From the IMG/VR virus record IMGVR_UViG_3300032226_000446, positions 1-44,593 of that record: DNA of 44,593 bases; one strand, 5' to 3'. Position 1 is the first letter of the stretch. Every line of letters begins with the position of its first letter. The position numbers and the translations under genes were made by a program. This document shows, piece after piece, positions 869 through 14,966 of this stretch. The notes under the pieces are model-generated. The model had not been told where the DNA came from, did no database searches, and worked only from the letters and a program-made list of their open reading frames with translations. Origin of the DNA: a virus. Lineage: Duplodnaviria; Caudoviricetes.

Positions 869-880
869 ATTCGCTCCTTG

Positions 881-1066
881 TTAGTTTATATGTGTATTAT
901 ACAATCGATTTTCCACTTTGTCAACCAAATCGGTCTCTATACGGTTTATGTTCTTTTCACAGATCTGTGCCACGACTTTGAGGATCTTTCGCTGATCCCA
1001 AAGGGTGGTCTCGGATGATTCCAAGGCCTCAATGGCGGTCTTGAGATACTCTAAGTTAGTGACCAC
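881..1066 (-). CDS. hypothetical protein
   Basis: ORF track; abuts the upstream gene, with AAGGAG before the GTG start. Confidence 0.65.
   Translation of the reverse strand: MVTNLEYLKTAIEALESSETTLWDQRKILKVVAQICEKNINRIETDLVDKVENRLYNTHIN
896..924 (-). promoter_or_regulatory. sigma70 early promoter TTGACA-17-TATAAT
   Basis: -35 at 919-924, -10 at 896-901; lies inside the 3' end of ORF 881..1066; RBS GGAGCGAAT at 869-877. Confidence 0.9.
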
Positions 1067-1330
1067 TTAGGACTCCTTGATCATTTTGGCTAGGTGTTCA
1101 TTCTTCTGCTTCTGTGCTGTGCGTAGCAGTTGCTCGCGGATCTCGGCACGCTTGGCCTTGGGCAACATACTGATCACATCTCCCAACAACACCGTGTAGA
1201 CACCGCAGGCGTAGGCATAAGAACCATCGTGGTTCTCACGAGCAGCCTGCTCTAGCTCGTTGATGGCATCTCGAGTCTCACGGCACTCGTCTAGGTATTC
1301 GTTGAACTTCTGTTGTGCTGATTTAGGCAT
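1067..1330 (-). CDS. hypothetical protein
   Basis: ORF with GGAGCGAAT RBS and own promoter. Confidence 0.8.
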   Translation of the reverse strand: MPKSAQQKFNEYLDECRETRDAINELEQAARENHDGSYAYACGVYTVLLGDVISMLPKAKRAEIREQLLRTAQKQKNEHLAKMIKES

Positions 1331-1355
1331 ATTCGCTCCTTCTTAGTATGTGTAT

Positions 1356-1384
1356 ATTATAGCACCGTCAGCCCAAAACGTCAA
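1356..1384 (-). promoter_or_regulatory. sigma70 early promoter TTGACG-17-TATAAT
   Basis: -35 at 1379-1384, -10 at 1356-1361 with extended TG. Confidence 0.88.
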
Positions 1385-1589
1385 CCGATTTGTAGTCTTT
1401 AACCATACGGTACAAAGGGTCTAATTCTTCTACGTTCTCGAGCTCGAAATCGTCTGACAGCCAATCGATCCATTCCTCGTATTTGACATCAGCATCCCGG
1501 ACCAACTCACGTGCTTCCTCCTCGGATTCTGCTTCCACTTCAAAGGTCTCAGCCACGATACAGTTGCGCCAAAATGTAAACTTCTTCAT
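1368..1589 (-). CDS. hypothetical acidic protein
   Basis: ORF track; FEVEAESEEEA motif common in small phage proteins. Confidence 0.75.
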   Translation of the reverse strand: MKKFTFWRNCIVAETFEVEAESEEEARELVRDADVKYEEWIDWLSDDFELENVEELDPLYRMVKDYKSVDVLG

Positions 1590-1591
1590 AG

Positions 1592-1705
1592 TTACATTCC
1601 TGCGACTGTGGCCAGGCCAGCAGCAGTCAGCAGCAGCACTGTTTGGATGATGCCGGTAACCCAGCCCAGGTATGCTACTGTGATGATTCCAATGAGTTGT
1701 AACAT
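1592..1705 (-). CDS. 37-aa hydrophobic membrane microprotein (MLQLIGIITVAYLGWVTGIIQTVLLLTAAGLATVAGM)
   Basis: Not in ORF track; GGAGCGAA RBS at 1708-1715 and promoter at 1733-1761. Confidence 0.75.
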   Translation of the reverse strand: MLQLIGIITVAYLGWVTGIIQTVLLLTAAGLATVAGM

Positions 1706-1732
1706 AGTTCGCTCCTTTGTTCCAGTATTAGT

Positions 1733-1761
1733 AGTCTAACATCACCCGTCCAAACTGTCAA
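1733..1761 (-). promoter_or_regulatory. sigma70 early promoter TTGACA-17-TAGACT
   Basis: -35 at 1756-1761, -10 at 1733-1738. Confidence 0.8.
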
Positions 1762-1984
1762 CCTTTTGGGTGTTGCAAAATTGCCACATCTTTAGTTCGG
1801 CACCCGTTATCCCCAGCAAGACTCCCTCGAAGTCTCTGTAGCTGCAACAGGCATGAGCCCTGGGCCAACTCATGTAGCCTTCTAACACGGCCTTGTGATA
1901 TCTAGTCACAGCAGCTTTGGCGGGCCCTGGTTTTTTGTAGTATTTTACAAAGTTACCGTTATCGTCGTAGACTACCCATCCCAT
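1742..1984 (-). CDS. hypothetical protein
   Basis: ORF track; N-terminus (WVVYD...YKKPGPAKAAVTR) resembles that of 9952..10257. Confidence 0.75.
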   Translation of the reverse strand: MGWVVYDDNGNFVKYYKKPGPAKAAVTRYHKAVLEGYMSWPRAHACCSYRDFEGVLLGITGAELKMWQFCNTQKVDSLDG

Positions 1985-1986
1985 AA

Positions 1987-2082
1987 TTACTCCATGCTAA
2001 TGGCCAAAAAGGCCAAGATAAACGCCCATAGCAGATGTCCTGTGAGGACCAAAACAATTACTCCAACCCAAGCAGCGATCAT
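1987..2082 (-). CDS. 31-aa membrane microprotein (MIAAWVGVIVLVLTGHLLWAFILAFLAISME)
   Basis: Not in ORF track; ATGA overlap with the upstream gene, AAGGAG RBS, fills the gap. Confidence 0.65.
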   Translation of the reverse strand: MIAAWVGVIVLVLTGHLLWAFILAFLAISME

Positions 2083-2420
2083 ACCATCTCCTTAGTGTGT
2101 TTACAGTTGCCACGGAACGTGAATCCTGGGCAGGTACAGGTTTTGTCCTGGACATTTACCCAGTAAGAGTTACCCTTAGAACCCTTGACTTCCACAGTTG
2201 CATTCTCGGCTGCATTCTCTGGGATCTTGAATGGGTTGGGTTCTAAGCGTTCGAACTTGCGACCCCTACGATCGATCTTGATCTTGCCGCTGCTCCAACG
2301 AATCTCACCAGTGCCCCAAGGACGATAGGCCACGATCTTGTCGCCATCTAGCAGGTAGTCGTGGTTAGGAGTCTGGTAGGTTATCCCGGTCCACTCAGTG
2401 ATCTCACGCACAGCTTCCAT
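2079..2420 (-). CDS. SWIM zinc-finger protein
   Basis: C-terminal GSKGNSYWV...CTCPGFTFRGNCKH; start moved to MEAVRE (2420). Confidence 0.75.
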   Translation of the reverse strand: MEAVREITEWTGITYQTPNHDYLLDGDKIVAYRPWGTGEIRWSSGKIKIDRRGRKFERLEPNPFKIPENAAENATVEVKGSKGNSYWVNVQDKTCTCPGFTFRGNCKHTKEMV

Positions 2421-2509
2421 CACTGCACCCACAGGCAGACCGCTATGATCTGTACAGCGACAATCAAGCCTAGACCTACTGCCAATCTGATTTGGGTTTG
2501 TGGTTCCAT
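2420..2509 (-). CDS. 29-aa membrane microprotein (MEPQTQIRLAVGLGLIVAVQIIAVCLWVQ)
   Basis: Not in ORF track; TAATG and TGATG couplings on both sides. Confidence 0.6.
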   Translation of the reverse strand: MEPQTQIRLAVGLGLIVAVQIIAVCLWVQ

Positions 2510-2775
2510 TAGCGCCAATCCTTCTTGTCACCGAACCGCTCGTTGTAGTTGTAGCCCGCCATGTATTCATCTACGGAGGCTTTGTCATGTACACGCACAC
2601 GCTCACCCGAATCACCACCAACTCCACCGTAGTGTGGCGCAGGTTGACGTCCGTAGTAGGAATCGGCACTGCCACGATCATACAGGCAACCGTGTTGCTT
2701 GCGATCCCACTGCCATCCTTTGAGAGCACTAACAATACGCTCTTGTTCTGTTTGGTTTTCTAATTTGAAATACAT
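2509..2775 (-). CDS. conserved hypothetical phage protein
   Basis: HG..YDRGSADSYYGR...PHY and EYMAGY...GDKKDW motifs; GGAGCGAA RBS. Confidence 0.8.
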   Translation of the reverse strand: MYFKLENQTEQERIVSALKGWQWDRKQHGCLYDRGSADSYYGRQPAPHYGGVGGDSGERVRVHDKASVDEYMAGYNYNERFGDKKDWR

Positions 2776-2804
2776 CTTCGCTCCTATTATCTAACTATGA
2801 CTAT

Positions 2805-2833
2805 AGTATAGCACCAAGCATCCAAACTGTCAA
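2805..2833 (-). promoter_or_regulatory. sigma70 early promoter TTGACA-17-TATACT
   Basis: -35 at 2828-2833, -10 at 2805-2810. Confidence 0.88.
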
Positions 2834-2838
2834 CCAAT

Positions 2839-3036
2839 TTAATCTAGCCAACAATCCCTAGCCGACTGTACGGTTTTATCCTGCCCACCAATATAGCCAC
2901 CCTCAAACCCGTTAGGGCCCGCTTCCAGGAACAGTCTGTCCCCTTCTATGCGGTAGATCCTGCCCGACTGCTCGATATCGCATTTAAACGACACCCAGTC
3001 TCCGACCCTAACGATCTGTCCGTCTATGGTAGCCAT
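2839..3036 (-). CDS. hypothetical protein (small beta-barrel-like)
   Basis: ORF track; coupled to the upstream stop. Confidence 0.7.
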   Translation of the reverse strand: MATIDGQIVRVGDWVSFKCDIEQSGRIYRIEGDRLFLEAGPNGFEGGYIGGQDKTVQSARDCWLD

Positions 3037-3383
3037 TAGTCCAACCTCGAACCAGCGTAGGCTTCAAAGCCATAACGTTTGAACACGGCCGCAGCAGCCT
3101 CAGCACCCTTCTCGAGTGTGTCTACGTTCTGGCAGCCGAAGTTGCTGGGGTTCCACATCTGTAGACCGCCTGAGTAGCTAGGACGGATGTCGCACTCTTT
3201 CAATGCGCGACCGATCTTGGTGTTGCCTTTGACACCGTAGATGTTGACCCAGGCAAAGCCACATGCGAACTGATCTTGGCCTCCCAAGACTCGATCAAAG
3301 TATTCACGTGCCGCTGCATGTGCAGCTGTCTTGGCTTCTTGGACGATTGCAGGGATCTGCTCAGGGGTTGCAGTGATAGTCAT
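3036..3383 (-). CDS. conserved hypothetical phage protein
   Basis: CGFAWV...QNVDTLEKGAEA...SRLD motifs; start moved to MTITAT behind the GGAGCGAA RBS. Confidence 0.8.
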   Translation of the reverse strand: MTITATPEQIPAIVQEAKTAAHAAAREYFDRVLGGQDQFACGFAWVNIYGVKGNTKIGRALKECDIRPSYSGGLQMWNPSNFGCQNVDTLEKGAEAAAAVFKRYGFEAYAGSRLD

Positions 3384-3414
3384 CTTTCGCTCCTTTGTGT
3401 TAAACAATACCTAT

Positions 3415-3443
3415 AGTATAGCACCATGGGTCTAGTCTGTCAA
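3415..3443 (-). promoter_or_regulatory. sigma70 early promoter TTGACA-17-TATACT
   Basis: -35 at 3438-3443, -10 at 3415-3420. Confidence 0.88.
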
Positions 3444-3456
3444 CTTTGGAAAGACC

Positions 3457-3786
3457 CTACTTGCGTCTGGGTTTTAATAGAGCCTGCGCTTCTTTGCGCA
3501 GTTGCCCAGCTTCTCGGTACATCCTATCAGCAGCCTGGGTGAGTTCACGTGATCGTTCCTGGGACATCTTGGTGCCACTGAACTCTCGATCCACGTAGTG
3601 CGCGATCAATGAATTCTTAATCATTGTTGGTAGGTCGTGTCCGTAGTCCTCTGGACAGATGAACCGAACAGGACAGCGACCCCACCCACCGTGCTCCACA
3701 AACTCTGCGTAGTAGCGTCTATGATCTTTATTAGTTGGATCAAACGCCACTAACGGCCTGAGTTTGTACTCTAGTTTGCTCATCAA
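3457..3786 (-). CDS. hypothetical protein
   Basis: ORF track; last gene in a chain of overlapping genes. Confidence 0.75.
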   Translation of the reverse strand: MMSKLEYKLRPLVAFDPTNKDHRRYYAEFVEHGGWGRCPVRFICPEDYGHDLPTMIKNSLIAHYVDREFSGTKMSQERSRELTQAADRMYREAGQLRKEAQALLKPRRK

Positions 3787-3947
3787 CTGTTTACAGTGTC
3801 GTGAGGGTCATAGCTGATAATGTCAAGGCCCGTGATCTCTTCAATTTCGGGAGTGTCAATCCGGGCACTGAGCCAATCATCGATGTCGTCTAGTTGACCT
3901 TCTTCATTGTAGGTAGGATCTTCAACGATCATTCCAAATCGGCTCAT
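3783..3947 (-). CDS. 54-aa acidic hypothetical protein (MSRFGMIVEDPTYNEEGQLDDIDDWL...)
   Basis: Not in ORF track; start and stop overlap both neighbours. Confidence 0.65.
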   Translation of the reverse strand: MSRFGMIVEDPTYNEEGQLDDIDDWLSARIDTPEIEEITGLDIISYDPHDTVNS

Positions 3948-4072
3948 CGTGCGATCTCCACAGACTTCTCTTTGACTGTGTCAACACCTTTGTCCAGCAT
4001 ACGAGCAATTCCTGAGAATCCCACTGTGGCCAATACTAGACCAAATACGGTACCTATGATAAACATCTTCAT
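3944..4072 (-). CDS. 42-aa membrane microprotein (MKMFIIGTVFGLVLATVGFSGIARMLDKGVDTVKEKSVEIAR)
   Basis: Not in ORF track; ATGA overlaps; AAGGAG RBS. Confidence 0.7.
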   Translation of the reverse strand: MKMFIIGTVFGLVLATVGFSGIARMLDKGVDTVKEKSVEIAR

Positions 4073-4218
4073 ACAGACTCCTTGTCTTCAACGTTGGGTT
4101 GAGGGTTGTTACGATTCTTAAAGCGATACCAGAGCATTTGGGGAATGCCCATGCGCCAGGCATACATAAAATCCATTACAATCATACCTGCTACGAATGC
4201 TAAGACTAGTTCCATCAT
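4069..4218 (-). CDS. 49-aa membrane microprotein (MMELVLAFVAGMIVMDFMYAWRMGIPQMLWYRFKNR...)
   Basis: Not in ORF track; AAGGAGCG RBS and promoter at 4250-4278. Confidence 0.7.
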   Translation of the reverse strand: MMELVLAFVAGMIVMDFMYAWRMGIPQMLWYRFKNRNNPQPNVEDKESV

Positions 4219-4249
4219 ATACCGCTCCTTCTTGTGTGTCAGTGTTTAT

Positions 4250-4278
4250 ATTATACGACCAATCTATCTATCTGTCAA
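4250..4278 (-). promoter_or_regulatory. sigma70 early promoter TTGACA-17-TATAAT
   Basis: -35 at 4273-4278, -10 at 4250-4255. Confidence 0.88.
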
Positions 4279-4432
4279 ATCCTAGAGCTACGCACACACA
4301 TAGCAGCGGGGTCTGTGGCAGAAAAACCACAACCCCTGGCACTCTTGTATAGGTGGGCGCAGAATTGGCTCGCGACTGATTCATCTGCTTTAAGGTTGTA
4401 GCCTAGGACTGCCAACAACCACCCGTAGAACA

Positions 4433-5641
4433 TTAAGCCGTCTCCCGCTCGTAGATCACAGTCTGACCAAAGGGTGCTTCTGCTTCTCTGTTACCTTTGA
4501 CGATAAAGATCGTATCGCAGTAATCAGGGTCACCCCAACTACCACAGGGGTAGCCGTCTGTGAACATAATGAACTTCTTAGGAGCAATGCCGTTATCTTT
4601 CATGTAGGTCCAATTGACTTCAAAGTCTGTGCCACCACCACCCTGAGGTTCGTATTCCTCTAGATCATGCCCATTGTCATGTGTGATCTCCTTGTGGTTA
4701 TAGATCTCTGTGTCAAAGCACCACAGGTTGATCTTGAAGTCCTCGTACTGGTCCATGATGCCCTTGACTTCACTGAGAAATACAGTTGCATCCTCTTGCC
4801 CAATCGAACCCGACATATCAATACCAATGCCTACGTCAATGGTAGTGGCTTCTTTCATTCCGGGCAAGACTGCTCCACTGTGCATACTCTTACGATTCAC
4901 CCGTTGGAAGGAATAGTCATTTCGAACGATGCTTTGAATCTCTTGTTGCACCAACTGACGCCAGTCCATCTTAGGCTCAGTCAAGTCCTTGATCATACGC
5001 ATAATACCTGCAGGAGTCTTGCCTGCACCTGCGGCCGCGGCACTCTGGATCATAGCCTGCTTGATCTCATCACGGATGGCCTGTGCTTCTTCTTTGGTCA
5101 TGCCGGGCTTGCCTTTGCCCTCGCCTTCTTTGTCTTCTTTACCCGGACCCGACCCATCTTCGTTGATGTGCTCATCTAAGAGATCACCTAGTTGTTTCAT
5201 CAGTTCGGGCAGACTGATCTTCTCCGCCTTCTCCCACAGATCATCATAGATCTCTTCCCATGCTTTACCACGGTACTTTGAATCGTAGCAGATCTGAACT
5301 TCAGTGATCTTCTCACCAATACGCTCGTCTACAAGGATTTGATTGACGGCATAGTCCTGTGCGATGTTGCTGAGCTGGCGATCGCGACTACCTACACGAC
5401 CAAAGTGATCAAACACGCAGTGACAGATCTCATGGCCGAACAGGAACTCTAGTTTCTTCACCGAGAGCTTCTCAACGAACTTCTTATTGTAATAGAAGTT
5501 TCTGCCATTAGTAGCGGCGGTAGGGCACCAGTCCGATGCATCAATCAGTTGCATACGAGTTGCCATGTTGCCAAAGAATGGTGCTTTGAGCAGAAGTCCT
5601 ACTCGGGCAGTAATCAATTTTTCGACGATTTGATCTTGCAT
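4433..5641 (-). CDS. DUF2201-type putative metallopeptidase + VWA domain protein
   Basis: TAATNG...HEICH (HExxH), IDMSGS MIDAS motif, GGGGTDF, FTDGY; adjacent to an AAA ATPase. Confidence 0.88.
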   Translation of the reverse strand: MQDQIVEKLITARVGLLLKAPFFGNMATRMQLIDASDWCPTAATNGRNFYYNKKFVEKLSVKKLEFLFGHEICHCVFDHFGRVGSRDRQLSNIAQDYAVNQILVDERIGEKITEVQICYDSKYRGKAWEEIYDDLWEKAEKISLPELMKQLGDLLDEHINEDGSGPGKEDKEGEGKGKPGMTKEEAQAIRDEIKQAMIQSAAAAGAGKTPAGIMRMIKDLTEPKMDWRQLVQQEIQSIVRNDYSFQRVNRKSMHSGAVLPGMKEATTIDVGIGIDMSGSIGQEDATVFLSEVKGIMDQYEDFKINLWCFDTEIYNHKEITHDNGHDLEEYEPQGGGGTDFEVNWTYMKDNGIAPKKFIMFTDGYPCGSWGDPDYCDTIFIVKGNREAEAPFGQTVIYERETA

Positions 5642-5670
5642 AATGTTCGCTCTCCTAACTGTATGTATAT

Positions 5671-5699
5671 ATTATAGCACCGCCCGGCACTTCTGTCAA
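5671..5699 (-). promoter_or_regulatory. sigma70 early promoter TTGACA-17-TATAAT
   Basis: -35 at 5694-5699, -10 at 5671-5676. Confidence 0.88.
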
Positions 5700-5701
5700 C
5701 C

Positions 5702-5741
5702 AAAAAGGTGGGCGGGTAGCCCTGAGAAAGCCCCCGCCCCT
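5702..5741 (-). terminator. probable intrinsic terminator after the AAA ATPase gene
   Basis: GGGCGGG...CCCGCCC stem followed by ACCUUUUU on the minus strand. Confidence 0.6.
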
Positions 5742-5755
5742 GCTATGGCGAGGTC

Positions 5756-6841
5756 TTAATTCTCCATAGCACTCAAAACATACTTACCGAAACGCTTGTG
5801 GAACTCGTCGAAGGATTTCATCTTCGTAGCGTCCAGGGGCAGGTTGTAGTTGGTAAGGGCTGTCTTGGCGCCCATCACAACCAACTCTGTTGGGAAATTG
5901 TCCATCATATAGCGGAAGAAGCGATCAGCCATATCGTCCCAGGTCTTGGTCTTCTTCTCTGCACGGTCCTTGAGCTCATAGCAGAGGCTAACCGTCAAAG
6001 AATACATCGCTGACACTTCTTTGACCTGCAGGTCCTTGACCTTACCGTCGAGGATGTCCTCTGCCTTAGGCAGTTTAGACGCAATCTTACGATGAGCCAT
6101 AAACTTTACAGCCAGGCCATCGCCTACGGCACCCGCGATCAAGTTGTGCAGGGTTTCAGTATCAGAATCATCATCATTGAGCAGATCGCTGACGAACACC
6201 CATGAGCGTGGAGTTGCGAAGCTCTTGCTAGGGCTCTTAGGATCAAAGTCATACAAGTCCTGCTTGGCAAAACCTACATAACCTACGACTTCTGGATGCA
6301 CCTTGTTGAGCGTAGCCCAGTCCTGGAAGTCATCAAAGTCCACTTTCATTTCCAAGTGAACGAATCGGTTAGCCAACGGAGCAGGCATACGATAGGTAAC
6401 ACCACGATCACCTTCACGGTTACCTGCGGCGACCACATCAACACCCTTGGGCAATTGATAGGTACCAACACGTCGGTTTAGGATCAACTGATAGGCCGCG
6501 GCCTGGACAGCCGGAGGAGCAGAGTTTAATTCATCTAAGAAGATGATAGCAGTAGACTCGGAGTCCACAGGAAGTTCTGCAGGGGGAGCCCAAACCATCT
6601 TGCCCTGATCGGCATTGTAATAAGGAATACCTTTGATGTCTGTGGGTTCCCACAATGCTAGGCGCACGTCGATGACTTCACGACCTAGATCGTCACCGAT
6701 CTGCTTGACTACGTCACTCTTACCAATACCTGGAGGACCCCACAGAAATGTTGGACGGCGCACCTTCAGTGCTTTACGAATCGCCTTCTTGGCGCTCTTA
6801 GGACCGCATTGGCGGATGCTAATATCTGTAGACTTGCTCAT
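5756..6841 (-). CDS. MoxR/dynein-related AAA+ ATPase
   Basis: Walker A GPPGIGKS, Walker B IIFLDE, AAGNR, LANRF, ATPRSW. Confidence 0.9.
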   Translation of the reverse strand: MSKSTDISIRQCGPKSAKKAIRKALKVRRPTFLWGPPGIGKSDVVKQIGDDLGREVIDVRLALWEPTDIKGIPYYNADQGKMVWAPPAELPVDSESTAIIFLDELNSAPPAVQAAAYQLILNRRVGTYQLPKGVDVVAAGNREGDRGVTYRMPAPLANRFVHLEMKVDFDDFQDWATLNKVHPEVVGYVGFAKQDLYDFDPKSPSKSFATPRSWVFVSDLLNDDDSDTETLHNLIAGAVGDGLAVKFMAHRKIASKLPKAEDILDGKVKDLQVKEVSAMYSLTVSLCYELKDRAEKKTKTWDDMADRFFRYMMDNFPTELVVMGAKTALTNYNLPLDATKMKSFDEFHKRFGKYVLSAMEN

Positions 6842-6874
6842 TTAAGACCTCCTAGTTAGTTTCTCAGTATCATA

Positions 6875-6903
6875 AGTATAGCACCAAACACTCACCCTGT
6901 CAA
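6875..6903 (-). promoter_or_regulatory. sigma70 early promoter TTGACA-17-TATACT
   Basis: -35 at 6898-6903, -10 at 6875-6880. Confidence 0.88.
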
Positions 6904-7535
6904 CTCACGATCTTTACATAGTTGAGCTGTGTTGTTTTATCGCCACGCTGACGTTTGATCTTGCCCTTGACCGTTAGCTCCCCTTTAAGCTCCTTGGTGA
7001 ACCAGAAGTCTACGAAGCTTTCACCCATACGGGCCGTGATCTTGTGCTTGTTGTACTCATTGCTAAATCGGGTGTTAATCACGTGGATCTCACCTTGAAT
7101 AGTGTCCCCTTCAGCTCCCCGGAGCTGTTCCGAGGCATAGACTTCACGTTTGATCTCTTGACGAGTTTGATCACGATGGGCCACAGATGGCAAGCAGCTA
7201 ATCACAGCGAAATCGTACATATCTCGGCCCGTGAATACATCCTTGGCTGCGATCTTCATTGCGGTCTTTTGGAATTCGTTGAGCTGTCCAGTCAGGGCCA
7301 ACAGCGTATAAGACTTGAAGTGATCCCGGGCGCTGCGGCCAGCAGCATAGTCTGCCTCAGTGACTTCTACGAAATTGTTGGTTCTGAGCCAGTCCTTGAC
7401 CAGGCTCTTGTTGGCTCGCTTTTCGAGGAAGGCTGCCGGTGAATTGTGATTCCAGACATCTTCTTTGAAGTAGCCTCCGTTGACACGCTGCGCGGCAGCA
7501 GCACAAGCCCAGACTTGATCAGCAGTGAATTCCAT
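6900..7535 (-). CDS. hypothetical protein with possible C-terminal OB-fold
   Basis: Start moved to MEFTAD behind the GGAGCGAA RBS; C-terminal TVKGKIK...TQLNYVK. Confidence 0.75.
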   Translation of the reverse strand: MEFTADQVWACAAAAQRVNGGYFKEDVWNHNSPAAFLEKRANKSLVKDWLRTNNFVEVTEADYAAGRSARDHFKSYTLLALTGQLNEFQKTAMKIAAKDVFTGRDMYDFAVISCLPSVAHRDQTRQEIKREVYASEQLRGAEGDTIQGEIHVINTRFSNEYNKHKITARMGESFVDFWFTKELKGELTVKGKIKRQRGDKTTQLNYVKIVS

Positions 7536-7563
7536 AGTTCGCTCCGTGTTCTTCATTGTCTCT

Positions 7564-7592
7564 ATTATATAGCCGAGCGCCCAAACTGTCAA
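7564..7592 (-). promoter_or_regulatory. sigma70 early promoter TTGACA-17-TATAAT
   Basis: -35 at 7587-7592, -10 at 7564-7569. Confidence 0.85.
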
Positions 7593-7637
7593 CTGGAGAG
7601 AGTGCCGGTGGTGTGGCTTTTCTACAACACTAGGGTC

Positions 7638-7667
7638 AAAAAGAAAGGCCGCATATAGCGACCTTCC
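7638..7667 (-). terminator. intrinsic terminator
   Basis: GGAAGGUCGC-UAUAU-GCGGCCUUUC followed by UUUUU. Confidence 0.8.
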
Positions 7668-7705
7668 TCAAACCGCCCCGGGAGCGAATCGGCTTGGTTT
7701 GAAAA
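7638..7705 (-). ncRNA. candidate 3'UTR-derived antisense sRNA whose loop (AUUCGCUCC) is complementary to early-gene RBSs
   Basis: Stem formed by 7696-7702 and 7668-7674 (UCAAACC/GGUUUGA); inner CCG/CGG stem; loop is the reverse complement of GGAGCGAAU; terminator follows. Confidence 0.55.
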
Positions 7706-7711
7706 TAGACC

Positions 7712-7984
7712 TTAGATGGTCATGCCAGCTGCTTTGGCTTTGTAGCCTAGGGCAACGATTTCACGGCTTGGCTTGCCAATGCTGTACTCAGTAACGGTAA
7801 CACCGTTGCCAGCTGTACGGCTGTTAGAATAAACAGCGTAACCGTTTTGACGGATACGGCTGGCTTCTGCGGCCAAATTGCCTACGCCAAAACGCTTCTT
7901 GGCTTCTGCTGGGGTCAATGACTCACCATGGTACAATGCGTTAAAAACTTTAAAAGTTTTGGTTTCTGGGTTCAAACGTTTCAT
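7712..7984 (-). CDS. small winged-helix/HTH DNA-binding protein
   Basis: ALYHGESLTPAEAKKRFGVGNLAAEASRIRQNGY pattern; own promoter; RBS AAAGGAAAC. Confidence 0.7.
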   Translation of the reverse strand: MKRLNPETKTFKVFNALYHGESLTPAEAKKRFGVGNLAAEASRIRQNGYAVYSNSRTAGNGVTVTEYSIGKPSREIVALGYKAKAAGMTI

Positions 7985-8038
7985 GTTTTAAGTTTCCTTT
8001 TTTAATATAGCTGATAAAAAGTTGTTCAGCGTGTTAGT

Positions 8039-8067
8039 ATTATATGACCTCACCCGATAAAAAGCAA
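8039..8067 (-). promoter_or_regulatory. sigma70 promoter TTGCTT-17-TATAAT
   Basis: -35 at 8062-8067, -10 at 8039-8044. Confidence 0.65.
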
Positions 8068-8086
8068 TGGGCAATTTCACCAATCA

Positions 8087-8284
8087 TCATTTCCTTACCT
8101 TCACACTGGGCACAGCTACGATGATCGCAGAGGCTAGCCATGTCCAAAACGTGTAGGGCAGCTGACTTCCAGGCCAAAGATGCTGTCCAAATTCGTTGAT
8201 GGCCCAGATAAAGGCCAACGGCCCTATGGCAACGAGGAATACTATCAAAGCCCCGATCCCAAGTAGTTTAAGCAGTGTAGGCAT
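8087..8284 (-). CDS. small membrane protein (2 TM)
   Basis: ORF track; hydrophobic; coupled to the upstream stop. Confidence 0.75.
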   Translation of the reverse strand: MPTLLKLLGIGALIVFLVAIGPLAFIWAINEFGQHLWPGSQLPYTFWTWLASAIIVAVPSVKVRK

Positions 8285-9381
8285 TAGTAGGCACCCTTCA
8301 TAACAGTTACCTTGGCCATGTTCTGCCAGTTAGTAGGAAAGCTCTTGCGCAGATCCGCTACTTTCAGTACAGTACGCAGACTCAATTCACGCATTTGGGC
8401 ACGATTAGTTTCGATGAAGTCCACAACCTCATCGCGAGCTACATCTTCCAATTCGTAGCTGTCCAACATGCCGTCTTTGACGATCTGTTTGATACGCAGT
8501 ACTTTCTCGCGATCTGTGTCCATTCTGAGATCGATGTAGTGGCAACGGCTTTCTAATGCGGCCAAGTGCTCCTGCAACTTCTTAGATCTGACGTTCTCGA
8601 ACTTCAAGTTAGTGATAAAGATAGCACCACCTTTGAACTCAAACTTGTCTGGGATGCCTTCTGAACGAAGCAGACGGCTGTCAGTGTTCCAAGAGATAGT
8701 ACGCTTCTTACTCGAATCCAAAGCGGCTTTTAGGATGTTCAGCGCAATGTCGTCTAACAAAATGCTGTCGCAGTCATCGAACACAAGGATGTTCTTTGCA
8801 TCGCTGTACTGATAGAGCTTAGAATACAGGCCAATGGCACTCATAGCACCTTTGACGATCTCGTAGCGTGGCTTACGCTCGCCCAAGGTATTGAACAGGT
8901 CGTCTTTGCTTAGTACTTCTTCAACACCAAACGATTTGCCCACACCTGGAGGGCCTGTAACGATCATAGCACGGACATCTCCGCCTTTGACAGCTTTGGT
9001 CATGTCTTTGAGGATCTCAAAGCGCAGTCGTGTGCGCTCGATGATCTCTTCATCGGTCTCATGTGCTACAGCCTCGTCTGAGACTTTGGCCTGTGTGAAG
9101 TCCGTGACTTCGGAACCTTTGGCGGGCTTCTTCAGAGCCTGAAGCATAGTTACTCCCTGTGGAATGGGTTTGGCTGAGCCAGCGGTGTTATAGGCACCCT
9201 GCCGGCACTTGATGCGGATTGAACGATCGGGAAAGCCTGGCTGTCCGCCACCTTCTACAGTGACATAGCCCTCACCGCTCTTGGAGACTTTATAGTCTTC
9301 TACTAGTTTAAAAGTCATACCCCCAACATTAGTGGGTTGACCCTTGATATTATACCAGCCCTCGGTAAATGTAATATACAC
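8284..9381 (-). CDS. P-loop/AAA ATPase domain protein
   Basis: GPPGVGKS, LVFDDCD, IFITN, ALESR; GTG start at 9381 behind the GGAGCGAA RBS. Confidence 0.85.
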   Translation of the reverse strand: MYITFTEGWYNIKGQPTNVGGMTFKLVEDYKVSKSGEGYVTVEGGGQPGFPDRSIRIKCRQGAYNTAGSAKPIPQGVTMLQALKKPAKGSEVTDFTQAKVSDEAVAHETDEEIIERTRLRFEILKDMTKAVKGGDVRAMIVTGPPGVGKSFGVEEVLSKDDLFNTLGERKPRYEIVKGAMSAIGLYSKLYQYSDAKNILVFDDCDSILLDDIALNILKAALDSSKKRTISWNTDSRLLRSEGIPDKFEFKGGAIFITNLKFENVRSKKLQEHLAALESRCHYIDLRMDTDREKVLRIKQIVKDGMLDSYELEDVARDEVVDFIETNRAQMRELSLRTVLKVADLRKSFPTNWQNMAKVTVMKGAY

Positions 9382-9414
9382 GTTTTCGCTCCTGTGTGTG
9401 TTCATCATTTTCGT

Positions 9415-9443
9415 AGTATACTGTCTCTGGACTCTGTTGTCAA
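9415..9443 (-). promoter_or_regulatory. sigma70 early promoter TTGACA-17-TATACT
   Basis: -35 at 9438-9443, -10 at 9415-9420. Confidence 0.88.
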
Positions 9444-9469
9444 GTCCGGAAACCCTTGCCCTTGTAGGG

Positions 9470-9889
9470 TTATTCTTCCTCTGCTATCAGCTGGTCAATG
9501 GTGTTAGCAGCTAGGGCATCAACCAAGGGTATCAGCCCACCTTTGATCAATCCGGGTGTGTCATAAACAGCACCCGCATACCAAACTCCGTCCCGCAAGA
9601 CGTAGTAGTACTCAGCACCACAGCTCTCGACCTGCTCGAGGAACTCTTCGAACGTGTGTGCGACCTGCCAGCTGACATCCGTCTCGCCACGATCAGAGTA
9701 GAAGTTCATTTCTTCTAGGGTCTCTTTGACACCCGAATTGTCGCCACGTGCTACCAGTGCATTGGCTAGGGTGGAGTCGTAGTGCTTGTTGAGGATCTCT
9801 CCAGTGTAGTCTAGATAGCCATCGTAGTGGCAGTAGACTGATTTGCAGACATCGCCATGCATGACAGCTACTCGTGAACGTGTACCCAT
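9470..9889 (-). CDS. conserved hypothetical phage protein
   Basis: MGTRSRVAV...SVYCHYDGY...EYYYV motifs; RBS and promoter present. Confidence 0.8.
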   Translation of the reverse strand: MGTRSRVAVMHGDVCKSVYCHYDGYLDYTGEILNKHYDSTLANALVARGDNSGVKETLEEMNFYSDRGETDVSWQVAHTFEEFLEQVESCGAEYYYVLRDGVWYAGAVYDTPGLIKGGLIPLVDALAANTIDQLIAEEE

Positions 9890-9920
9890 TTGTCGCTCCT
9901 TTTTGTTTAACTTAGCCTAT

Positions 9921-9949
9921 ATTATACCATCAACTGCTGCTGCTGTCAA
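9921..9949 (-). promoter_or_regulatory. sigma70 early promoter TTGACA-17-TATAAT
   Basis: -35 at 9944-9949, -10 at 9921-9926. Confidence 0.88.
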
Positions 9950-9951
9950 CT

Positions 9952-10257
9952 CTACATTGACCAGTAGAGCTCAGAGCTGGGATCGCAGCTTCTGGGGGTG
10001 TTGACACTCTGGGTGAACTCCTTGCCCGTCATAAGATTACGCTTGGTCACACGCTGTTCGATCACTGAGTGATACCACGCAGCTTCCGCAGCGGCCATCC
10101 ACGTCAGGGGATCATCTTCGTGCGCATTGCTGCCCGCGACGTAGGGGAAAGCCCTGACATATTTGTTATGGGCCCGGGTTATAGCTGCCTGTGCCGCAGC
10201 CGGTGTCTTGTAGCTGTTGACTATAGCTGATGAACGCCGATCGTATACGTACCACAT
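9952..10257 (-). CDS. conserved hypothetical phage protein
   Basis: C-terminal NLMTGKEF..SVNTPRSCDPSSELYWSM; start moved to MWYVYD behind the GGAGCGAA RBS. Confidence 0.8.
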   Translation of the reverse strand: MWYVYDRRSSAIVNSYKTPAAAQAAITRAHNKYVRAFPYVAGSNAHEDDPLTWMAAAEAAWYHSVIEQRVTKRNLMTGKEFTQSVNTPRSCDPSSELYWSM

Positions 10258-10309
10258 AGTTCGCTCCTTGTTGGTGTTTGTGGGGGCTCTCTCGTTGGCC
10301 CCCGCCACG

Positions 10310-10510
10310 TTACTGCTGTTGCTCTGCGAACATCTTACGGCCCGCATCCATGAACATAGTATACGCTACTCTGTCCTCTTTGTCAAGATCGTCCCAGCTG
10401 GCCCGCATTTCTCTGAGCCCTGCTAGTATGTCCCCGCCCGTGTGTGTTTCAGCATACTCTGTGACTAGGGTGCAGGCATCACTGATGTCCATATAAAGCG
10501 GTGTACCCAT
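10310..10510 (-). CDS. hypothetical protein
   Basis: ORF track; AGGAG RBS. Confidence 0.7.
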   Translation of the reverse strand: MGTPLYMDISDACTLVTEYAETHTGGDILAGLREMRASWDDLDKEDRVAYTMFMDAGRKMFAEQQQ

Positions 10511-10511
10511 A

Positions 10512-10832
10512 TCAATCTCCTCTGGTGTCTGTGTTAAGGGTGGGCCTAAGGGCTCTGCGCAACTCTACTTCACGACGATGTGCATCACTCTTGCCTCGGA
10601 CGATCTCGTGTACGATGATCTCGATGTCTTCTTTTGATGCCAGCTCGCGTAGCGCAGAGCATAACAGCCACTGTTTGGTTTCAGTCCGGGCCCTATAGTA
10701 GTGTTTGGCTGCTCTAGCACGTACACTCTTTAATACAGTGGTCTCTGTCTTGGCAGTGACGCCAATGTAATTGCCCTGCGGTAGTCGCAGTTCATAGATG
10801 ATGTGATTTCTGTCAGTTCTTTTCGCTCTCAT
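10512..10832 (-). CDS. GIY-YIG nuclease-domain protein
   Basis: HIIYEL...NYIGVT, R...H, conserved E and LN; start at MRAKRTDRNH. Confidence 0.65.
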   Translation of the reverse strand: MRAKRTDRNHIIYELRLPQGNYIGVTAKTETTVLKSVRARAAKHYYRARTETKQWLLCSALRELASKEDIEIIVHEIVRGKSDAHRREVELRRALRPTLNTDTRGD

Positions 10833-10841
10833 AGTTTGTAT

Positions 10842-10870
10842 ATTATAGCACCAGTGCCAAGGCCTGTCAA
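10842..10870 (-). promoter_or_regulatory. sigma70 early promoter TTGACA-17-TATAAT
   Basis: -35 at 10865-10870, -10 at 10842-10847. Confidence 0.88.
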
Positions 10871-11004
10871 CCAATCACAGCGATCTCGTGGCCACCCAGA
10901 ACAACACAGCAGCTGCCGCGAACACAGCCGCGAAGATCCCACACTGCTGCAGTGTGGTAGTACGTGCCCATATGCTGCTCTTGTCGTCCATGACGGCTCC
11001 ATTA

Positions 11005-11080
11005 TGGCGCGACCGGGAGGGATCGAACCTCCGACCCACAGCTTAGAAGGCTGTTGCTCTATCCACTGAGCTACGGTCGC
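11005..11080 (-). tRNA. tRNA-Arg(UCU)
   Basis: Cloverleaf GCGACCG...CGGTCGC-G-CCA; anticodon arm ACAGC-CT-TCT-AA-GCTGT; GTTCGA T-loop. Confidence 0.96.
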
Positions 11081-11100
11081 ATGCTGCTGCTCGCAGTGTT

Positions 11101-11178
<78 letters not shown>

Positions 11179-11196
11179 GTATGCTGCTAGGTAACG

Positions 11197-11511
11197 TTAA
11201 TCTGGTGTTGACCCCTCGTGATCATCTTCAGCTGCTATCATACCCTCTGCACGATAGTCTTCTGTAACACTCGCCGCCATCTCATGCTGCTTGAGCATCT
11301 TATATAAGGGTTCCATACGCTGCTGTACAACGTGAGGGGCTGCTAGTTCTAGCTGCTGTAGATCATAGCTGCCTGGATAGTGTCTCAGCGCACTGGCCGC
11401 CCTGGTTCGGATCCCCCGAGGAACCCTAGGAGTCACCTTAGAATCACAGAGGTCCCGTAACAGCTGCTCAGCCATTTTGATTGCACGATATCGCTCATCT
11501 GGTAATGTCAT
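11197..11511 (-). CDS. hypothetical protein resembling the BPSL0761 family
   Basis: MTLPDERYRA...A...LRHYP motif; alternative leaderless start at 11550. Confidence 0.65.
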   Translation of the reverse strand: MTLPDERYRAIKMAEQLLRDLCDSKVTPRVPRGIRTRAASALRHYPGSYDLQQLELAAPHVVQQRMEPLYKMLKQHEMAASVTEDYRAEGMIAAEDDHEGSTPD

Positions 11512-11556
11512 TGATTCTCTCGCTTTAGATAACCGCTTTTTCTTAAGCATGTGTGT

Positions 11557-11585
11557 ATTATACTGTGAATGTCTGCGTGTGTCAA
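11557..11585 (-). promoter_or_regulatory. sigma70 early promoter TTGACA-17-TATAAT
   Basis: -35 at 11580-11585, -10 at 11557-11562. Confidence 0.88.
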
Positions 11586-11601
11586 CTCCCAGCAGCGGGG
11601 C

Positions 11602-11751
11602 CTATAGCCAAAATGCCAGAGAAACAGCCAGCATACAGTAGACTGTGCGCCTAGAGTCACGCCGATGCTGCCAGGACTCCGCAGAGGCGGCTTCCACTGT
11701 GAGTATCAGTATCCAAGGCAGTAGGCTGAGCATGCAGGCCAAATTGATCAC
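11602..11751 (-). CDS. 49-aa two-TM microprotein
   Basis: Not in ORF track; GTG start behind GGGAGCGA at 11755-11762. Confidence 0.5.
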   Translation of the reverse strand: MINLACMLSLLPWILILTVEAASAESWQHRRDSRRTVYCMLAVSLAFWL

Positions 11752-11839
11752 GAGTCGCTCCCTGTGTTATACTGTATATATACAGCCTGAGATCTCGCAG
11801 CGGGGCCACCGTTCAGAACGGTCCAGGAGCGGTCTCCAC

Positions 11840-12090
11840 GGTGAGAAATGGTGTCGAATGGTGTGAAATCGGGTGATCGCACAGTGCGATCACAGTAGAT
11901 CTATCGTGGCCTCATGGTGGATTGACAGACTATGCTCAAATGGTCACACAATTCTGCACTTTTCCACACAAATCCACACGAAAATACACTTTCCTAGAAT
12001 TTGGTTTAACTATAAACACACGCAGCGGGGCCTATATCTAGGCCGCTGTCAACTCCAGGGTCAGTAAATCACACAAAACCACACTTACTG
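11840..12090. repeat. non-coding region with 10-bp phased GTG/CAC repeats in opposite orientations
   Basis: GTGAGAAATG/GTGTCGAATG/GTGTGAAATC at 11841-11870; five CAC-containing 10-mers at 11941-11990; two more at about 12067-12086. Confidence 0.55.
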
Positions 12091-12101
12091 ACTGTGTTTT
12101 C

Positions 12102-12383
12102 CTAGAATTTCCCCTGTGTTTCTTCACAAATAGTACCTATGTCACACAAGTGTTCTATCGTATCTTCTTCAATGACCCACGTGGCAGTCACTCTATCACC
12201 CCCAGGCAGTCTACACAGTTCCACTTCCCAATTGTCTCTGAGTTCACAGCGTTCTAGCCTTTGATCAAAGCCCAAGAGCCTGTTACGGGCTCGCTGGGCT
12301 ATTCGGGCTCCGGCCCGACTCAGATAGTAACGCTCACGTTCTCCAGTATCTCTGTGCGTTAGATAATAAACGGTCTTAGGCAT
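12102..12383 (-). CDS. hypothetical protein
   Basis: ORF track. Confidence 0.6.
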   Translation of the reverse strand: MPKTVYYLTHRDTGERERYYLSRAGARIAQRARNRLLGFDQRLERCELRDNWEVELCRLPGGDRVTATWVIEEDTIEHLCDIGTICEETQGKF

Positions 12384-12484
12384 AGTGCTAACGCAAGCGT
12401 AATCACTGTGGGTTTAGCTAATTGGTATAGTGTCCATGCGGTAACTAGAACGCTAAACTCTAGGGCTTCAACAATAGTTCTCAT
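12359..12484 (-). CDS. 41-aa hydrophobic microprotein
   Basis: Not in ORF track; preceded by TAAGTA (late-promoter variant) 5 nt upstream. Confidence 0.4.
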   Translation of the reverse strand: MRTIVEALEFSVLVTAWTLYQLAKPTVITLALALCLRPFII

Positions 12485-12565
12485 ACTAGTACTTATTAGC
12501 GGCCTGCTAAATTAAATCTCTTGCGGCCCGCATGCTTTTGGTCCACGCCGAGTAAATATGTCAGT

Positions 12566-13200: not shown

Positions 13201-13821
13201 ATGACAGTTGCTCTAGAACAAAATCACGTCCGCGTTGTGGATCACGCTCTCACAGGAGAGTTCTGTGATCAGTTGGTCACAGCCTTTGAACAGTGCAGTC
13301 GTTGGCACAAAGAGCGCCCCGGAGACTGGGCCAAACTCATAGAGCTGGATCTCAACAGCAGGCACGGCCAGTTGCTGGCTCACAATCGTGGCCAACCCTG
13401 GGTTAAAGCCCGTGGCACACATGAATATGATTTCACTGAGGACTGCGAACGACTACTGGCCGTGACTACTGCGCAGGCACAGGCCTATAGAGATCGCTGG
13501 GACCCCCTCAGGATGATGCCCGAAACATGGTCCGCGGAGAGTTTCCGCATCAAGTGCTATAGACCCAACGGCCGTCACGAGTTTAAGCTACACGCAGATG
13601 GTGTGGGCCGAGAACAGTGCAGCCGATTCGTTAGCTTTCTCTACTATTTGAACGATTCTGATGCGGGCACAGAGTTTCCCCAGCTGGGCCTCACTGTTGA
13701 GGCACGACGGGGTCGGCTCTTGATGTTTCCACCTACTTGGACCTACCCCCATCGCGGACTCATGCCCGGGGACGGTCGTACCAAATACATACTCAGCACC
13801 TATCTACACTATGTTGAATAA
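13201..13821 (+). CDS. 2OG-Fe(II) oxygenase (prolyl-hydroxylase-like)
   Basis: HAD facial triad, YLND, GTEFP, FPPTWTYPH, KYILSTY. Confidence 0.88.
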   Translation: MTVALEQNHVRVVDHALTGEFCDQLVTAFEQCSRWHKERPGDWAKLIELDLNSRHGQLLAHNRGQPWVKARGTHEYDFTEDCERLLAVTTAQAQAYRDRWDPLRMMPETWSAESFRIKCYRPNGRHEFKLHADGVGREQCSRFVSFLYYLNDSDAGTEFPQLGLTVEARRGRLLMFPPTWTYPHRGLMPGDGRTKYILSTYLHYVE

Positions 13822-14380
13822 CTGTTTTACAACGCCCATATGGGTAGAAGATCTCCGTGGCCCTGTGCGATCACAGATAGACACAGAGATAGAACGCAGC
13901 CTGGGTTGGGCTCGAGCAGAACCCACACCCTGGGAAGAGCTGGGCTCTACTACCTTTAGTTTTGAGGGCTGCAATGATGTCATCAAGTTTCGCATGGACA
14001 CCTTGGCCCAGACCCTAGAGCGGTCTGTCAGTGAATTCTGTACAGCCGTGGGCTATGGTCTACCCGCACCCCAGCTGGTTGACTCCTGGTTGAATTGGTA
14101 TGGGCAGGGTGATTTTATGTTTGAACACATACACCCTGATAGACTGATCTCGGGCTGCTACTATCATAGGGTACCCGAGGGTTCAGGTCTGCTCAAGTTC
14201 AAGAACCCCAACCCTCTGATGCAGTGGAAGGCCTGGCCCGCGGATCGCTGCCGCGATCAGGACTTTAGGGTAGAACCCCGTGAGGGTCGATTGGTCTTGT
14301 TCCCTAGCTGGCTGACTCACAGGGTGGCGCCTAATCTAGGCACAGACACTAGGGTCAGCTTGGCCTTTAATTGGAGATAA
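13811..14380 (+). CDS. putative 2OG-Fe(II) oxygenase, TIGR02466-like
   Basis: SWLN, HIH, ISGCYY, FPSWLTH.V, RVSLAFN. Confidence 0.85.
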   Translation: MLNNCFTTPIWVEDLRGPVRSQIDTEIERSLGWARAEPTPWEELGSTTFSFEGCNDVIKFRMDTLAQTLERSVSEFCTAVGYGLPAPQLVDSWLNWYGQGDFMFEHIHPDRLISGCYYHRVPEGSGLLKFKNPNPLMQWKAWPADRCRDQDFRVEPREGRLVLFPSWLTHRVAPNLGTDTRVSLAFNWR

Positions 14381-14384
14381 CATC

Positions 14385-14960
14385 GTGAAGAATCTATTGC
14401 TGACACTGTTTCCTTCGCCTGTGATGATCTGGGATCTCGAGGCCACAGAGCTGGCTGTGATCAGTGCTGCCATTGATCAAGCAGAAGCCCAGAGCCAACG
14501 TCACTGGGACCTGGGCCGCCACAGTGTAGAAACCAGCTATAACCCCCAGGGTGTCAACGACATCATAGACCTAGGCATACAACCCCTGGCCGATGCCATA
14601 CATCAGTGCCAGCGGAGATATTTTGAACGTCTAGGCAGCCCGCCCAAAGATCTCAAGATCGTTGAATCGTGGTTCAATTGGTACAGTGTTGGGGGCTACA
14701 TGGGCGACCATGAACATCCTACCTGCACGGTATCAGGAGTTTATTATCATAGAGCAGAAGAGGATACCGCGGGCACTCTTTGTTTCCGTAACCCTAACCC
14801 TGTGATATTAAATAAGCTGTGGCCCGCAGATGTAGAGGGCATGGAGATAGTAGAAATACCCCCGCAACCAGGACGCTTGGTGATGTTTCCTAGTTGGATG
14901 ACACATTCTGTGAACAGGGTGGAAAACACCAAGACCAGTATCAGTTTTAACATGAGATAA
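14385..14960 (+). CDS. putative 2OG-Fe(II) oxygenase, TIGR02466-like
   Basis: SWFN, HEH, VSGVYY, FPSWMTHSV, SISFN. Confidence 0.85.
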   Translation: MKNLLLTLFPSPVMIWDLEATELAVISAAIDQAEAQSQRHWDLGRHSVETSYNPQGVNDIIDLGIQPLADAIHQCQRRYFERLGSPPKDLKIVESWFNWYSVGGYMGDHEHPTCTVSGVYYHRAEEDTAGTLCFRNPNPVILNKLWPADVEGMEIVEIPPQPGRLVMFPSWMTHSVNRVENTKTSISFNMR

Positions 14961-14966
14961 TATACA

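Follow-up and report, generated by a model that had tools for sequence, protein, structure and literature searches.

A 3′UTR hairpin loop complementary to a ribosome-binding-site tag of early genes in a group of uncultured aquatic giant phages

The stretch of DNA analysed here (the window) is a 44.6-kb piece of a virus record. Its positions 1-12,500 display short minus-strand genes behind near-consensus sigma70 promoters, and phage biology suggests that this is the early region. Promoter-SD cassettes are present there, as are two tRNA genes (11008-11080 and 11104-11178, minus strand); four tandem 2OG-Fe(II) oxygenase genes lie at 13201-15590 on the plus strand, and further on a ClpP-like protease, a cysteine dioxygenase and sugar-nucleotide genes are found. 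Related loci were recovered on contigs of up to 400 kb, and the group consists of many uncultured aquatic giant phages.

Within the early region, a gene at 7712..7984 (minus strand; Pfam HTH_39, E 6e-6; phrog_4973) encodes a 90-aa winged-HTH protein and is the loop carrier in this clade. The protein has a wHTH fold and about 2,400 relatives; its structural model (pLDDT 82) finds winged-helix neighbours with a best E of 0.01, a search by sequence gave no solved structure, and cultured relatives are limited to 36-38% matches in 6 records. The first-pass annotation had taken it for a DNA-binding regulator, which the fold supports, but no evidence ties the protein to early promoters. Transcription is predicted to start from a sigma70-like promoter, TTGCTT-N17-TATAAT (8039..8067, minus strand), and the transcript would begin with a folded 5′ stem-loop (8010..8030, minus strand), predicted to protect it from decay, whose pattern fits 48/48 distinct HTH leaders. 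The ribosome-binding site of the gene (AAAGGAAAC, 7992..8000, minus strand) was said to lack the target of the loop and indeed matches only 3 nt of it, with GAGCG present in 0/48 distinct homologous leaders. RNA evidence comes from two small-share metatranscriptome assemblies, with near-identical contigs over the HTH gene (7726-8021 and 7832-8010) and a few other places, such assembled contigs being unable to show strand, ends or level. The contig spanning 7726-8021 ends 10 nt inside the predicted HTH start site and was not counted as support; among the metatranscriptome matches listed, none reaches at least 95% identity over the hairpin described below, and the assembled contigs show no RNA end there.

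The anti-RBS hairpin (7668..7704, minus strand) is made of a lower stem, an internal loop, a 3-bp CCG/CGG apical stem and a 9-nt loop, AUUCGCUCC (7681..7689, minus strand), which by sequence match is the complement of the early tag GGAGCGAAU. Directly behind it lies a predicted intrinsic terminator-like hairpin with a U-tract (7638..7669, minus strand), which a simple terminator scan did not call. Hairpin, loop and terminator thus sit where the first-pass annotation had placed them, and its central claim holds on the sequence, the loop at 7689-7681 being the exact reverse complement of GGAGCGAAT, the early ribosome-binding site. Small RNAs derived from 3′UTRs occupy the space between a stop codon and an intrinsic terminator and are released by processing or from an internal promoter; the hairpin resembles them in its position between the HTH stop codon and the predicted terminator. 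Rfam 15 covariance models returned only the two tRNAs in the window at the gathering score, and in eight homologous loci, with E up to 0.5, they gave one tRNA and three sub-threshold matches, none plausible for the hairpin. An antisense ORF using the plus-strand GGAGCGAAT at 7681 was discarded: nothing but TTG-GTT-TGA lies behind it, and homologues do not conserve the TTG.

The accessibility of the loop was borne out across homologues but only in part for the window. In 133 distinct homologous copies, the 9 bases of the loop tend to be unpaired (mean probability 0.75-0.94), while for the window copy two folds tie at -11.3 kcal/mol, one opening all 9 nt and a slipped one pairing UUCG and exposing only CUCC; in this copy half of the loop is predicted to be paired, which we count against our preferred explanation. 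Predicted accessibility and complementarity together give an unpaired C-rich seed that matches the target RBSs.

In the window, GGAGCGAAT with at most one mismatch occurs 17 times versus 7.4 ± 2.7 expected, and 17 was reached in 0/100 shuffles. All 12 early sites listed by the first-pass annotation, which are on the minus strand, match at the lengths it gave. The match is 9/9 ahead of a 206-aa gene (869..877; family tagged 11/11) and of an 87-aa gene (1331..1339). It is 8/9 at 1708..1715, at 2777..2784 (family tagged 19/23), at 3386..3393 (18/24), at 7538..7545 ahead of a 211-aa gene downstream of the loop terminator, at 9385..9392 ahead of an ATPase gene, and at 10260..10267, a site which is not directly behind a TTGACA cassette. 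Seven positions match at 5646..5652, 9893..9899 (family tagged 38/44) and 11755..11761, and six at 4223..4228. The sites at 1331, 1708, 4223, 10260 and 11755 are assigned by sequence match. At 5646, ahead of a DUF2201 gene whose family is tagged 17/19, the tag is kept though offset from the SD core (GGAGAGCGA). The two later small genes proposed to carry the tag are doubtful: the match is 9/9 at 33734, but gene assignment is weak at both places, since the site at 33734 overlaps the last codons of an upstream ORF and precedes a 53-aa ORF that has no PHROG match, and the site at 38703 is inside a phosphoesterase ORF, 4 nt from an ATG. The 53-aa ORF (33744-33905, plus strand), behind the 9/9 tag, could encode a Cys/His-rich small protein. 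The conserved CGAA extension also needs trimming: over 605 leaders the C is kept in 77% and the G in 69%, followed by A in 59% and A in 58%, so that only GGAGCG is strongly held.

The tag is a property of early genes. At least 6 contiguous pairs with the loop are found ahead of 8/27 early versus 0/50 other window ORFs, a count made with a crude start-site picker that missed some tagged starts; in a complete genome of the group (G001), 11/29 early versus 5/414 other ORFs are tagged. Among the 16 largest early protein families, 13 are tagged at 75-100% and 3 at 0%. Outside the tag, cassettes are as alike between tagged pairs (0.38, 0.51, 0.44) as between mixed pairs (0.38, 0.50, 0.43). The tag is therefore family-specific and independent of cassette similarity, which argues for selection and not for hitch-hiking, and it persists when shifted off the SD core. 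Predicted duplexes between loop and RBS range from -12.1 to -17.6 kcal/mol, versus -5.8 to -8.1 kcal/mol for the extended anti-SD (sequence taken from PMC10783764). When the whole hairpin takes part in the co-folding, the gain is only -1.6 to -7.9 kcal/mol, a result that we count against the proposal and that comes from a method which cannot model kissing loops.

The loop is conserved in homologous loci, as had been asked of it: it lies within 150 nt of the HTH stop in 73/80 related loci (selected by their HTH protein as the best 80 of 225), and of the other seven, one is truncated, one interrupted, one has another code and four have few tagged leaders. An exact search with the 17-nt core, over 39/64 parts scanned, gave 119 loci, 116 of them within 150 nt of an HTH gene and the other 3 behind a distant wHTH, behind an ATPase, or cut short; the core is invariant in 20/20 aligned loci. 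Around the loop, the stems vary. Six closing triplets occur in the 133 distinct copies (CCG/CGG 110, ACG/CGG 9, TAG/CGA 6, CTG/CAG 4, AGG/CCT 3, AAG/CTT 1), and exchanging the lower stems between copies lowers their stability in 73/79 distinct flank pairs. This window has one loop hairpin, and other clades have 2-4 per RNA. In locus L039, a contig identical to L037-L043 upstream turns unrelated after 4831, 15 nt past the HTH stop, by insertion or misassembly; at 8330-8426 of L463, a short hairpin repeat is present three times in tandem at the contig end behind the wHTH 3′UTR, possibly as an assembly artefact.

Between lineages, the loop covaries with the RBS extension, in the way that the first-pass annotation had put forward for comparison, and four pairs are found: AUUCGCUCC/GGAGCG, UGCCCUC/GAGGGC, UUGCUCC/GGAGCA and GUAGUG/CACUA. 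The natural leader codes GGAGCGAA, GGAGCAA and GAGGGCA stand against the loops AUUCGCUCC, UUGCUCC and UGCCCUC. In class-A loci (loop AUUCGCUCC, n=98), GAGCG is present in 413/660 distinct leaders and AGGG[CT] in 3, whereas in class-B loci (loop GCCCUC, n=36) GAGCG is present in 6/140 and AGGG[CT] in 107/140, the comparison covering 185 loci. Loci with a UUGCUCC loop (n=4) have GAGCG in 0/34 and GAGCA in 23/34 leaders, against 409 and 97 of 673. Where the loop is GUAGUG (n=22), CACTA stands just 5′ of the SD in 102/193 leaders versus 57/673; the GUAGUG loop of these RNAs comes after a GCUCC seed, which appears to be the order needed for pairing with two adjacent leader segments. In G001 the HTH gene has no loop and the early leaders read GAGGGCA or AAGGGCA, with hairpins bearing GCCCUC loops behind the ATPase gene (z -7.5), an arrangement seen again in the loci retrieved with the G001 ATPase as query. 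A further 80 loci came from metagenomes searched with an ATPase of 70% identity, and 22/22 of those with a wHTH in view have a class A or D loop.

Classes A and B lie on opposite sides of the ATPase tree, which implies one switch; the GUAGUG group is sister to the clade of the window (support 92, quick tree), which implies a second. Within the GUAGUG group, GAGCG occurs in 11/133 leaders with a CGCUCC seed versus 0/64 with UUGCUCC (p 0.018). The number of independent switches between lineages is thus about two, to which weaker changes within one clade are added. Leaders from phages that are related are not independent observations, and the p-values therefore make the case look stronger than it is. 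The search seeds L005, L155 and P0122 were picked after their loops or tags had been seen, their neighbours being chosen by protein; a search with the query P0126 found no loci. Some loci count against the match: L017, L314, L315 and L335 keep the loop with GAGCG tags below 30%, and in L462 and L463 the sequence GGAGCAG or GGAGCAC stands in about ten early leaders, yet the wHTH is followed by a CGCUCC seed, no UGCUCC loop being seen in these two incomplete records. Loop-less loci are a weak negative control, as 51 of them gave 49 leaders and only 5 had at least 4 leaders, three of these being misfiled (L024 truncated, L039 interrupted, L244 missed by the rule). The labels "B" for AB, BD, L508, L535 and L564 were false ones produced by a loosened loop rule, the class A versus B counts using another rule; the "CG+D" loci L004, L006, L060, L067 and L069 were false D calls and their counts were replaced. 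Separately, leaders of L290, L310 and L269 repeat AAGGCAA or AGGGCAAA upstream of the RBS, as do those of G001; in the ATPase-ligase group, the region behind the ATPase showed no loop to match. Altogether, the sequences point to a real, conserved and co-evolving system of RNA loop and RBS tag.

The HTH gene is one of several carriers. The most constant neighbour is a NrdC.10-like AAA+ ATPase (8284..9381, minus strand; phrog_1250, with T4-type nrdC.10 and PA5oct matches and an AAA+ fold), whose best cultured match is the PA5oct group at 41%, T4-type nrdC.10 following further down, and whose model has a beta-rich N-terminal domain with no specific structural match. No terminator was called between the ATPase gene and the loop, and the transcript can read through to it. 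Its RBS (9392-9385) is the most faithful target, tagged in 34/35 (A) and 18/19 (B) distinct leaders versus about 60% of other leaders. The second loop carrier is a ~100-aa early protein with a Lys/Ala tail (L017 8500-8826 and homologues, no PHROG match), with 0/9 leaders tagged. A regulator and a small RNA had been placed together on one transcript; this describes the clade of the window, but other clades carry loops behind the ATPase or the second small gene and have an HTH gene without a loop, as in G001 and G002. Since the HTH gene carries the loop only in some clades, the pair is not a conserved unit, and the HTH protein is not an obligatory partner of the loop.

Complements of a gene's own RBS were also noticed elsewhere. 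The MoxR gene has the RBS GAGGTCTTAA, to which 10 nt at the stop codon of this gene are perfectly complementary (window 6851-6842 and 5759-5750, minus strand). Distant nrdC.10-like ATPases in L474-L476 and L482 have an own-RBS complement right after the stop and no regulon, and L474 displays the class-A loop and tag on the distant ATPase gene alone. In PA5oct, gp126 (L312 19978-19995, 21147-21189) has an 8-nt complement of a nrdC.10-like RBS extension in a 3′ spacer; it lies inside a 9-bp hairpin stem, its tag is not common to the other 56 listed RBSs, and it may be due to chance. GATTCGCTCCC was not found in the cultured relatives PA5oct or Acj9.

We propose, with a probability of about 0.58, that the loop pairs with the SD tag of many early genes and blocks ribosome loading on them as a set. 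Base pairing of loop and tag is very likely, and repression of tagged early mRNAs by a 3′UTR anti-RBS RNA, partly in trans, is likely. Early promoters would drive a few carrier transcripts, namely those of the HTH gene, the second small gene or the AAA+ ATPase; the HTH carrier, having a 5′ hairpin and a terminator, would accumulate, and the two small carriers lack the tag. No known chaperone would be needed for the exposed C-rich loop to initiate pairing, in which it would prevail over the 16S anti-SD. Silencing, and probably degradation, of the tagged early mRNAs would follow, within one molecule (the ATPase and read-through units) as well as between molecules. The active species may be the whole mRNA or a processed 3′ piece. 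The outcome would be a negative-feedback timer or a dosage limiter for the early block, and thereby an RNA counterpart of T4 RegB.

A trans-acting RNA was what the first-pass annotation had in mind, and tagged genes with no loop on their own transcription unit agree with it, 60/125 leaders being tagged although the terminator that follows them has no loop; left out were the ATPase and the possibility that the loop acts in cis only, folding back on the 5′ RBS of its own long transcript in an icaR-like closed loop, so that a finished mRNA shuts itself off and tagged genes head read-through transcripts ending at the loop. We hold cis action alone to be rather unlikely. The faithfulness of the ATPase RBS fits it, and tags are enriched where cis pairing is possible, being present in 227/329 leaders where the loop precedes the next predicted terminator and at 60/125 where it does not (145/229 undecided), and upstream of the loop (213/334) versus downstream (125/234, p 0.015). 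In 19/98 loci a further early block is closed by a second loop, often found 570-900 nt past the homologue of window gene 868, so that the end of the window probably comes shortly before such a loop. The untagged MoxR family has an RBS/stop complement of at least 7 nt in 30/31 homologous units, the distant ATPases of L474, L475, L476 and L482 have theirs, and there are precedents in icaR (PMC3868564) and in distal anti-SD 8-mers that repress in cis in B. subtilis (PMC12697547). Against cis action alone, the transcripts of the HTH gene and of the second carrier offer the loop no tag of their own (0/48 and 0/9). The 211-aa gene is tagged in 29/31 units; CGCUCC is absent up to the end of MoxR in 31/31, and in 21/31 a terminator was called at that end. 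In G001 a single loop cluster has 11 AGGGCAAA sites in the 3.5 kb downstream, and in G002 three tagged genes (331.7-333.2 kb) and the loops (13.8 kb) are about 80 kb or more apart, so that the only loops have tags downstream of them or at a great distance. The presence of 2-4 loops on one RNA also suggests many targets. Terminator calls are crude, hence read-through could explain some of the trans cases; L320 and L322, first taken as evidence against cis for their untagged ATPase RBS, were dropped because the first gene of the operon is tagged. On balance we favour a trans regulon, with cis and trans modes probably both operating, and self-pairing of the ATPase mRNA may be the older state.

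Other readings are less probable. That the phages have a rewritable RNA address code, in which early mRNAs are barcoded and loop guides, possibly complexed with the NrdC.10-like ATPase, sort them for shut-off or preferential translation, with orthogonal lineage codes that may serve as immunity groups, strikes us as distinctly unlikely. It is very improbable that the main role of the loop RNA is to silence early genes of a related phage that enters second, or to hold a resident phage in a carrier state, the codes being immunity groups: the codes are private to lineages and exclusion-mediating phage RNAs such as STnc6030 and sas are known (PMC12197685), but no integrase or repressor module was found among the 78 ORFs scanned in this genome fragment, four codes over hundreds of loci are little diversity for an arms race, and the same pairing as in our preferred explanation is needed, the difference being one of purpose and not of mechanism. 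Slightly weaker still is the case for a loop that stands in for the anti-SD, or that guides a ribonucleoprotein containing the ATPase or HTH protein, and so brings ribosomes or a nuclease to tagged mRNAs. Here the loop seems to keep the 16S-tail register around CUCC when set beside the anti-SD of PMC10783764, and the constant ATPase has a separate beta-rich N-terminal domain; yet neither an RNA-binding fold nor a nuclease was identified in structure comparisons of ATPase and HTH, the loop is absent from many ATPase homologues, and pairing over an SD normally blocks initiation, as for RsaE (PMC2790875). Least probable of all, and largely refuted by the covariation, is a match that is incidental at the RNA level, the tag having spread by recombining promoter-RBS cassettes like those of PeSL (PMC4122927) or reflecting a DNA operator or an unusual host anti-SD. 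The early cassettes of G001 are repetitive and nearly identical to one another, which fits, but the tag does not track cassette similarity, non-early genes have none, the loop is kept in variable stems and four codes are matched; as for the host, 16S genes made up 0/120 of the genome matches to a 16S tail with this loop pattern (20/64 parts scanned).

The arrangement had not been recognised as a described one, and the literature, mostly open literature, gave no match either, though the supplementary sRNA or motif tables of PMC12197685 and PMC5737381 could list it. The nearest relatives by mechanism are RsaE and RNAIII of Staphylococcus, in which C-rich loops, several per RNA, pair with the RBS of several mRNAs and block initiation, reportedly independently of Hfq (PMC2790875, PMC4615179). 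An unpaired C-rich loop facing several RBSs is common to both; theirs is bacterial with a generic UCCC seed, whereas here a phage-private SD extension co-evolves with the loop and the RNA is the 3′UTR of early phage mRNAs. Cuckoo RNAs of alphaproteobacteria have 2-4 adjacent hairpins with variable stems and a repeated loop, CCUCCUCCC, which is a plain anti-SD (PMC4615179; the word "phage" is absent from the text available). The hairpin number recalls that of our other clades, but CCUCCUCCC is not matched here, where the loops are AUUCGCUCC, UGCCCUC, UUGCUCC or GUAGUG, each with its matching tag. In icaR a 3′ anti-SD element pairs with the SD between the 5′ and 3′ UTRs of one mRNA in cis (PMC3868564). 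Such distal anti-SD pairing fits the ATPase and MoxR mRNAs, and an own-RBS complement of this type is found in 34/35 cases for the ATPase, if its transcript reads through, versus 0/48 for the HTH transcript; unlike icaR, many unrelated genes carry the target and two of the carriers do not.

Among phage systems, T4 RegB uses a GGAG-containing motif with a 3′ extension that marks early mRNAs for shut-off, including the regulator's own mRNA (PMC3014915). RegB is a protein endoribonuclease helped by S1, whereas the reader here is predicted to be RNA, and no RegB match was found among the 78 ORFs scanned in the window, a genome fragment. PeSL cassettes of T4-like phages are repeated sigma70 promoters with an SD ahead of early hypervariable genes, as are the repeated cassettes here, but their stem-loops stand upstream of each promoter and are read as recombination points, whereas our hairpins are at 3′ tails (PMC4122927, in whose available text "antisense" is absent). 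The known phage sRNAs sar, OOP, aQ, VpdS, PreS and STnc6030 repress by base pairing, as single-target antisense RNAs or with Hfq, and none of those described in the text of PMC12197685 addresses a tagged early regulon.

If the proposal is true, the phage has an all-RNA solution in which it extends its own RBSs into a private address and encodes the complementary reader, and a single short RNA could regulate at least a dozen unrelated genes and leave the mRNAs of the host and of late genes untouched. What is understood of the end of early expression in large lytic phages comes, to our knowledge, mainly from T4, in which the SD is read by a protein nuclease. The natural compensatory codes are ready-made specificity controls, which makes the system testable in E. 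coli without culturing the phage. It would also give a first functional handle on the nrdC.10 family and offer short orthogonal translational switches.

Finally, motifs near early promoters were noticed that may concern the HTH protein. A CCGG-type motif is near 73/916 promoters in class-A HTH loci versus 0/578 elsewhere, seemingly often at the one promoter behind the HTH gene. CCGGCACT stands just upstream of the promoter behind HTH in many homologues (window 7608-7601, minus strand), and its complement is in the DUF2201 promoter spacer (5691-5684, minus strand). The palindrome ACCGGTCATGACCGGT is present in several early promoter spacers of L010 (4051-9900), with variants in L021, and these two motifs are candidates for a wHTH operator.
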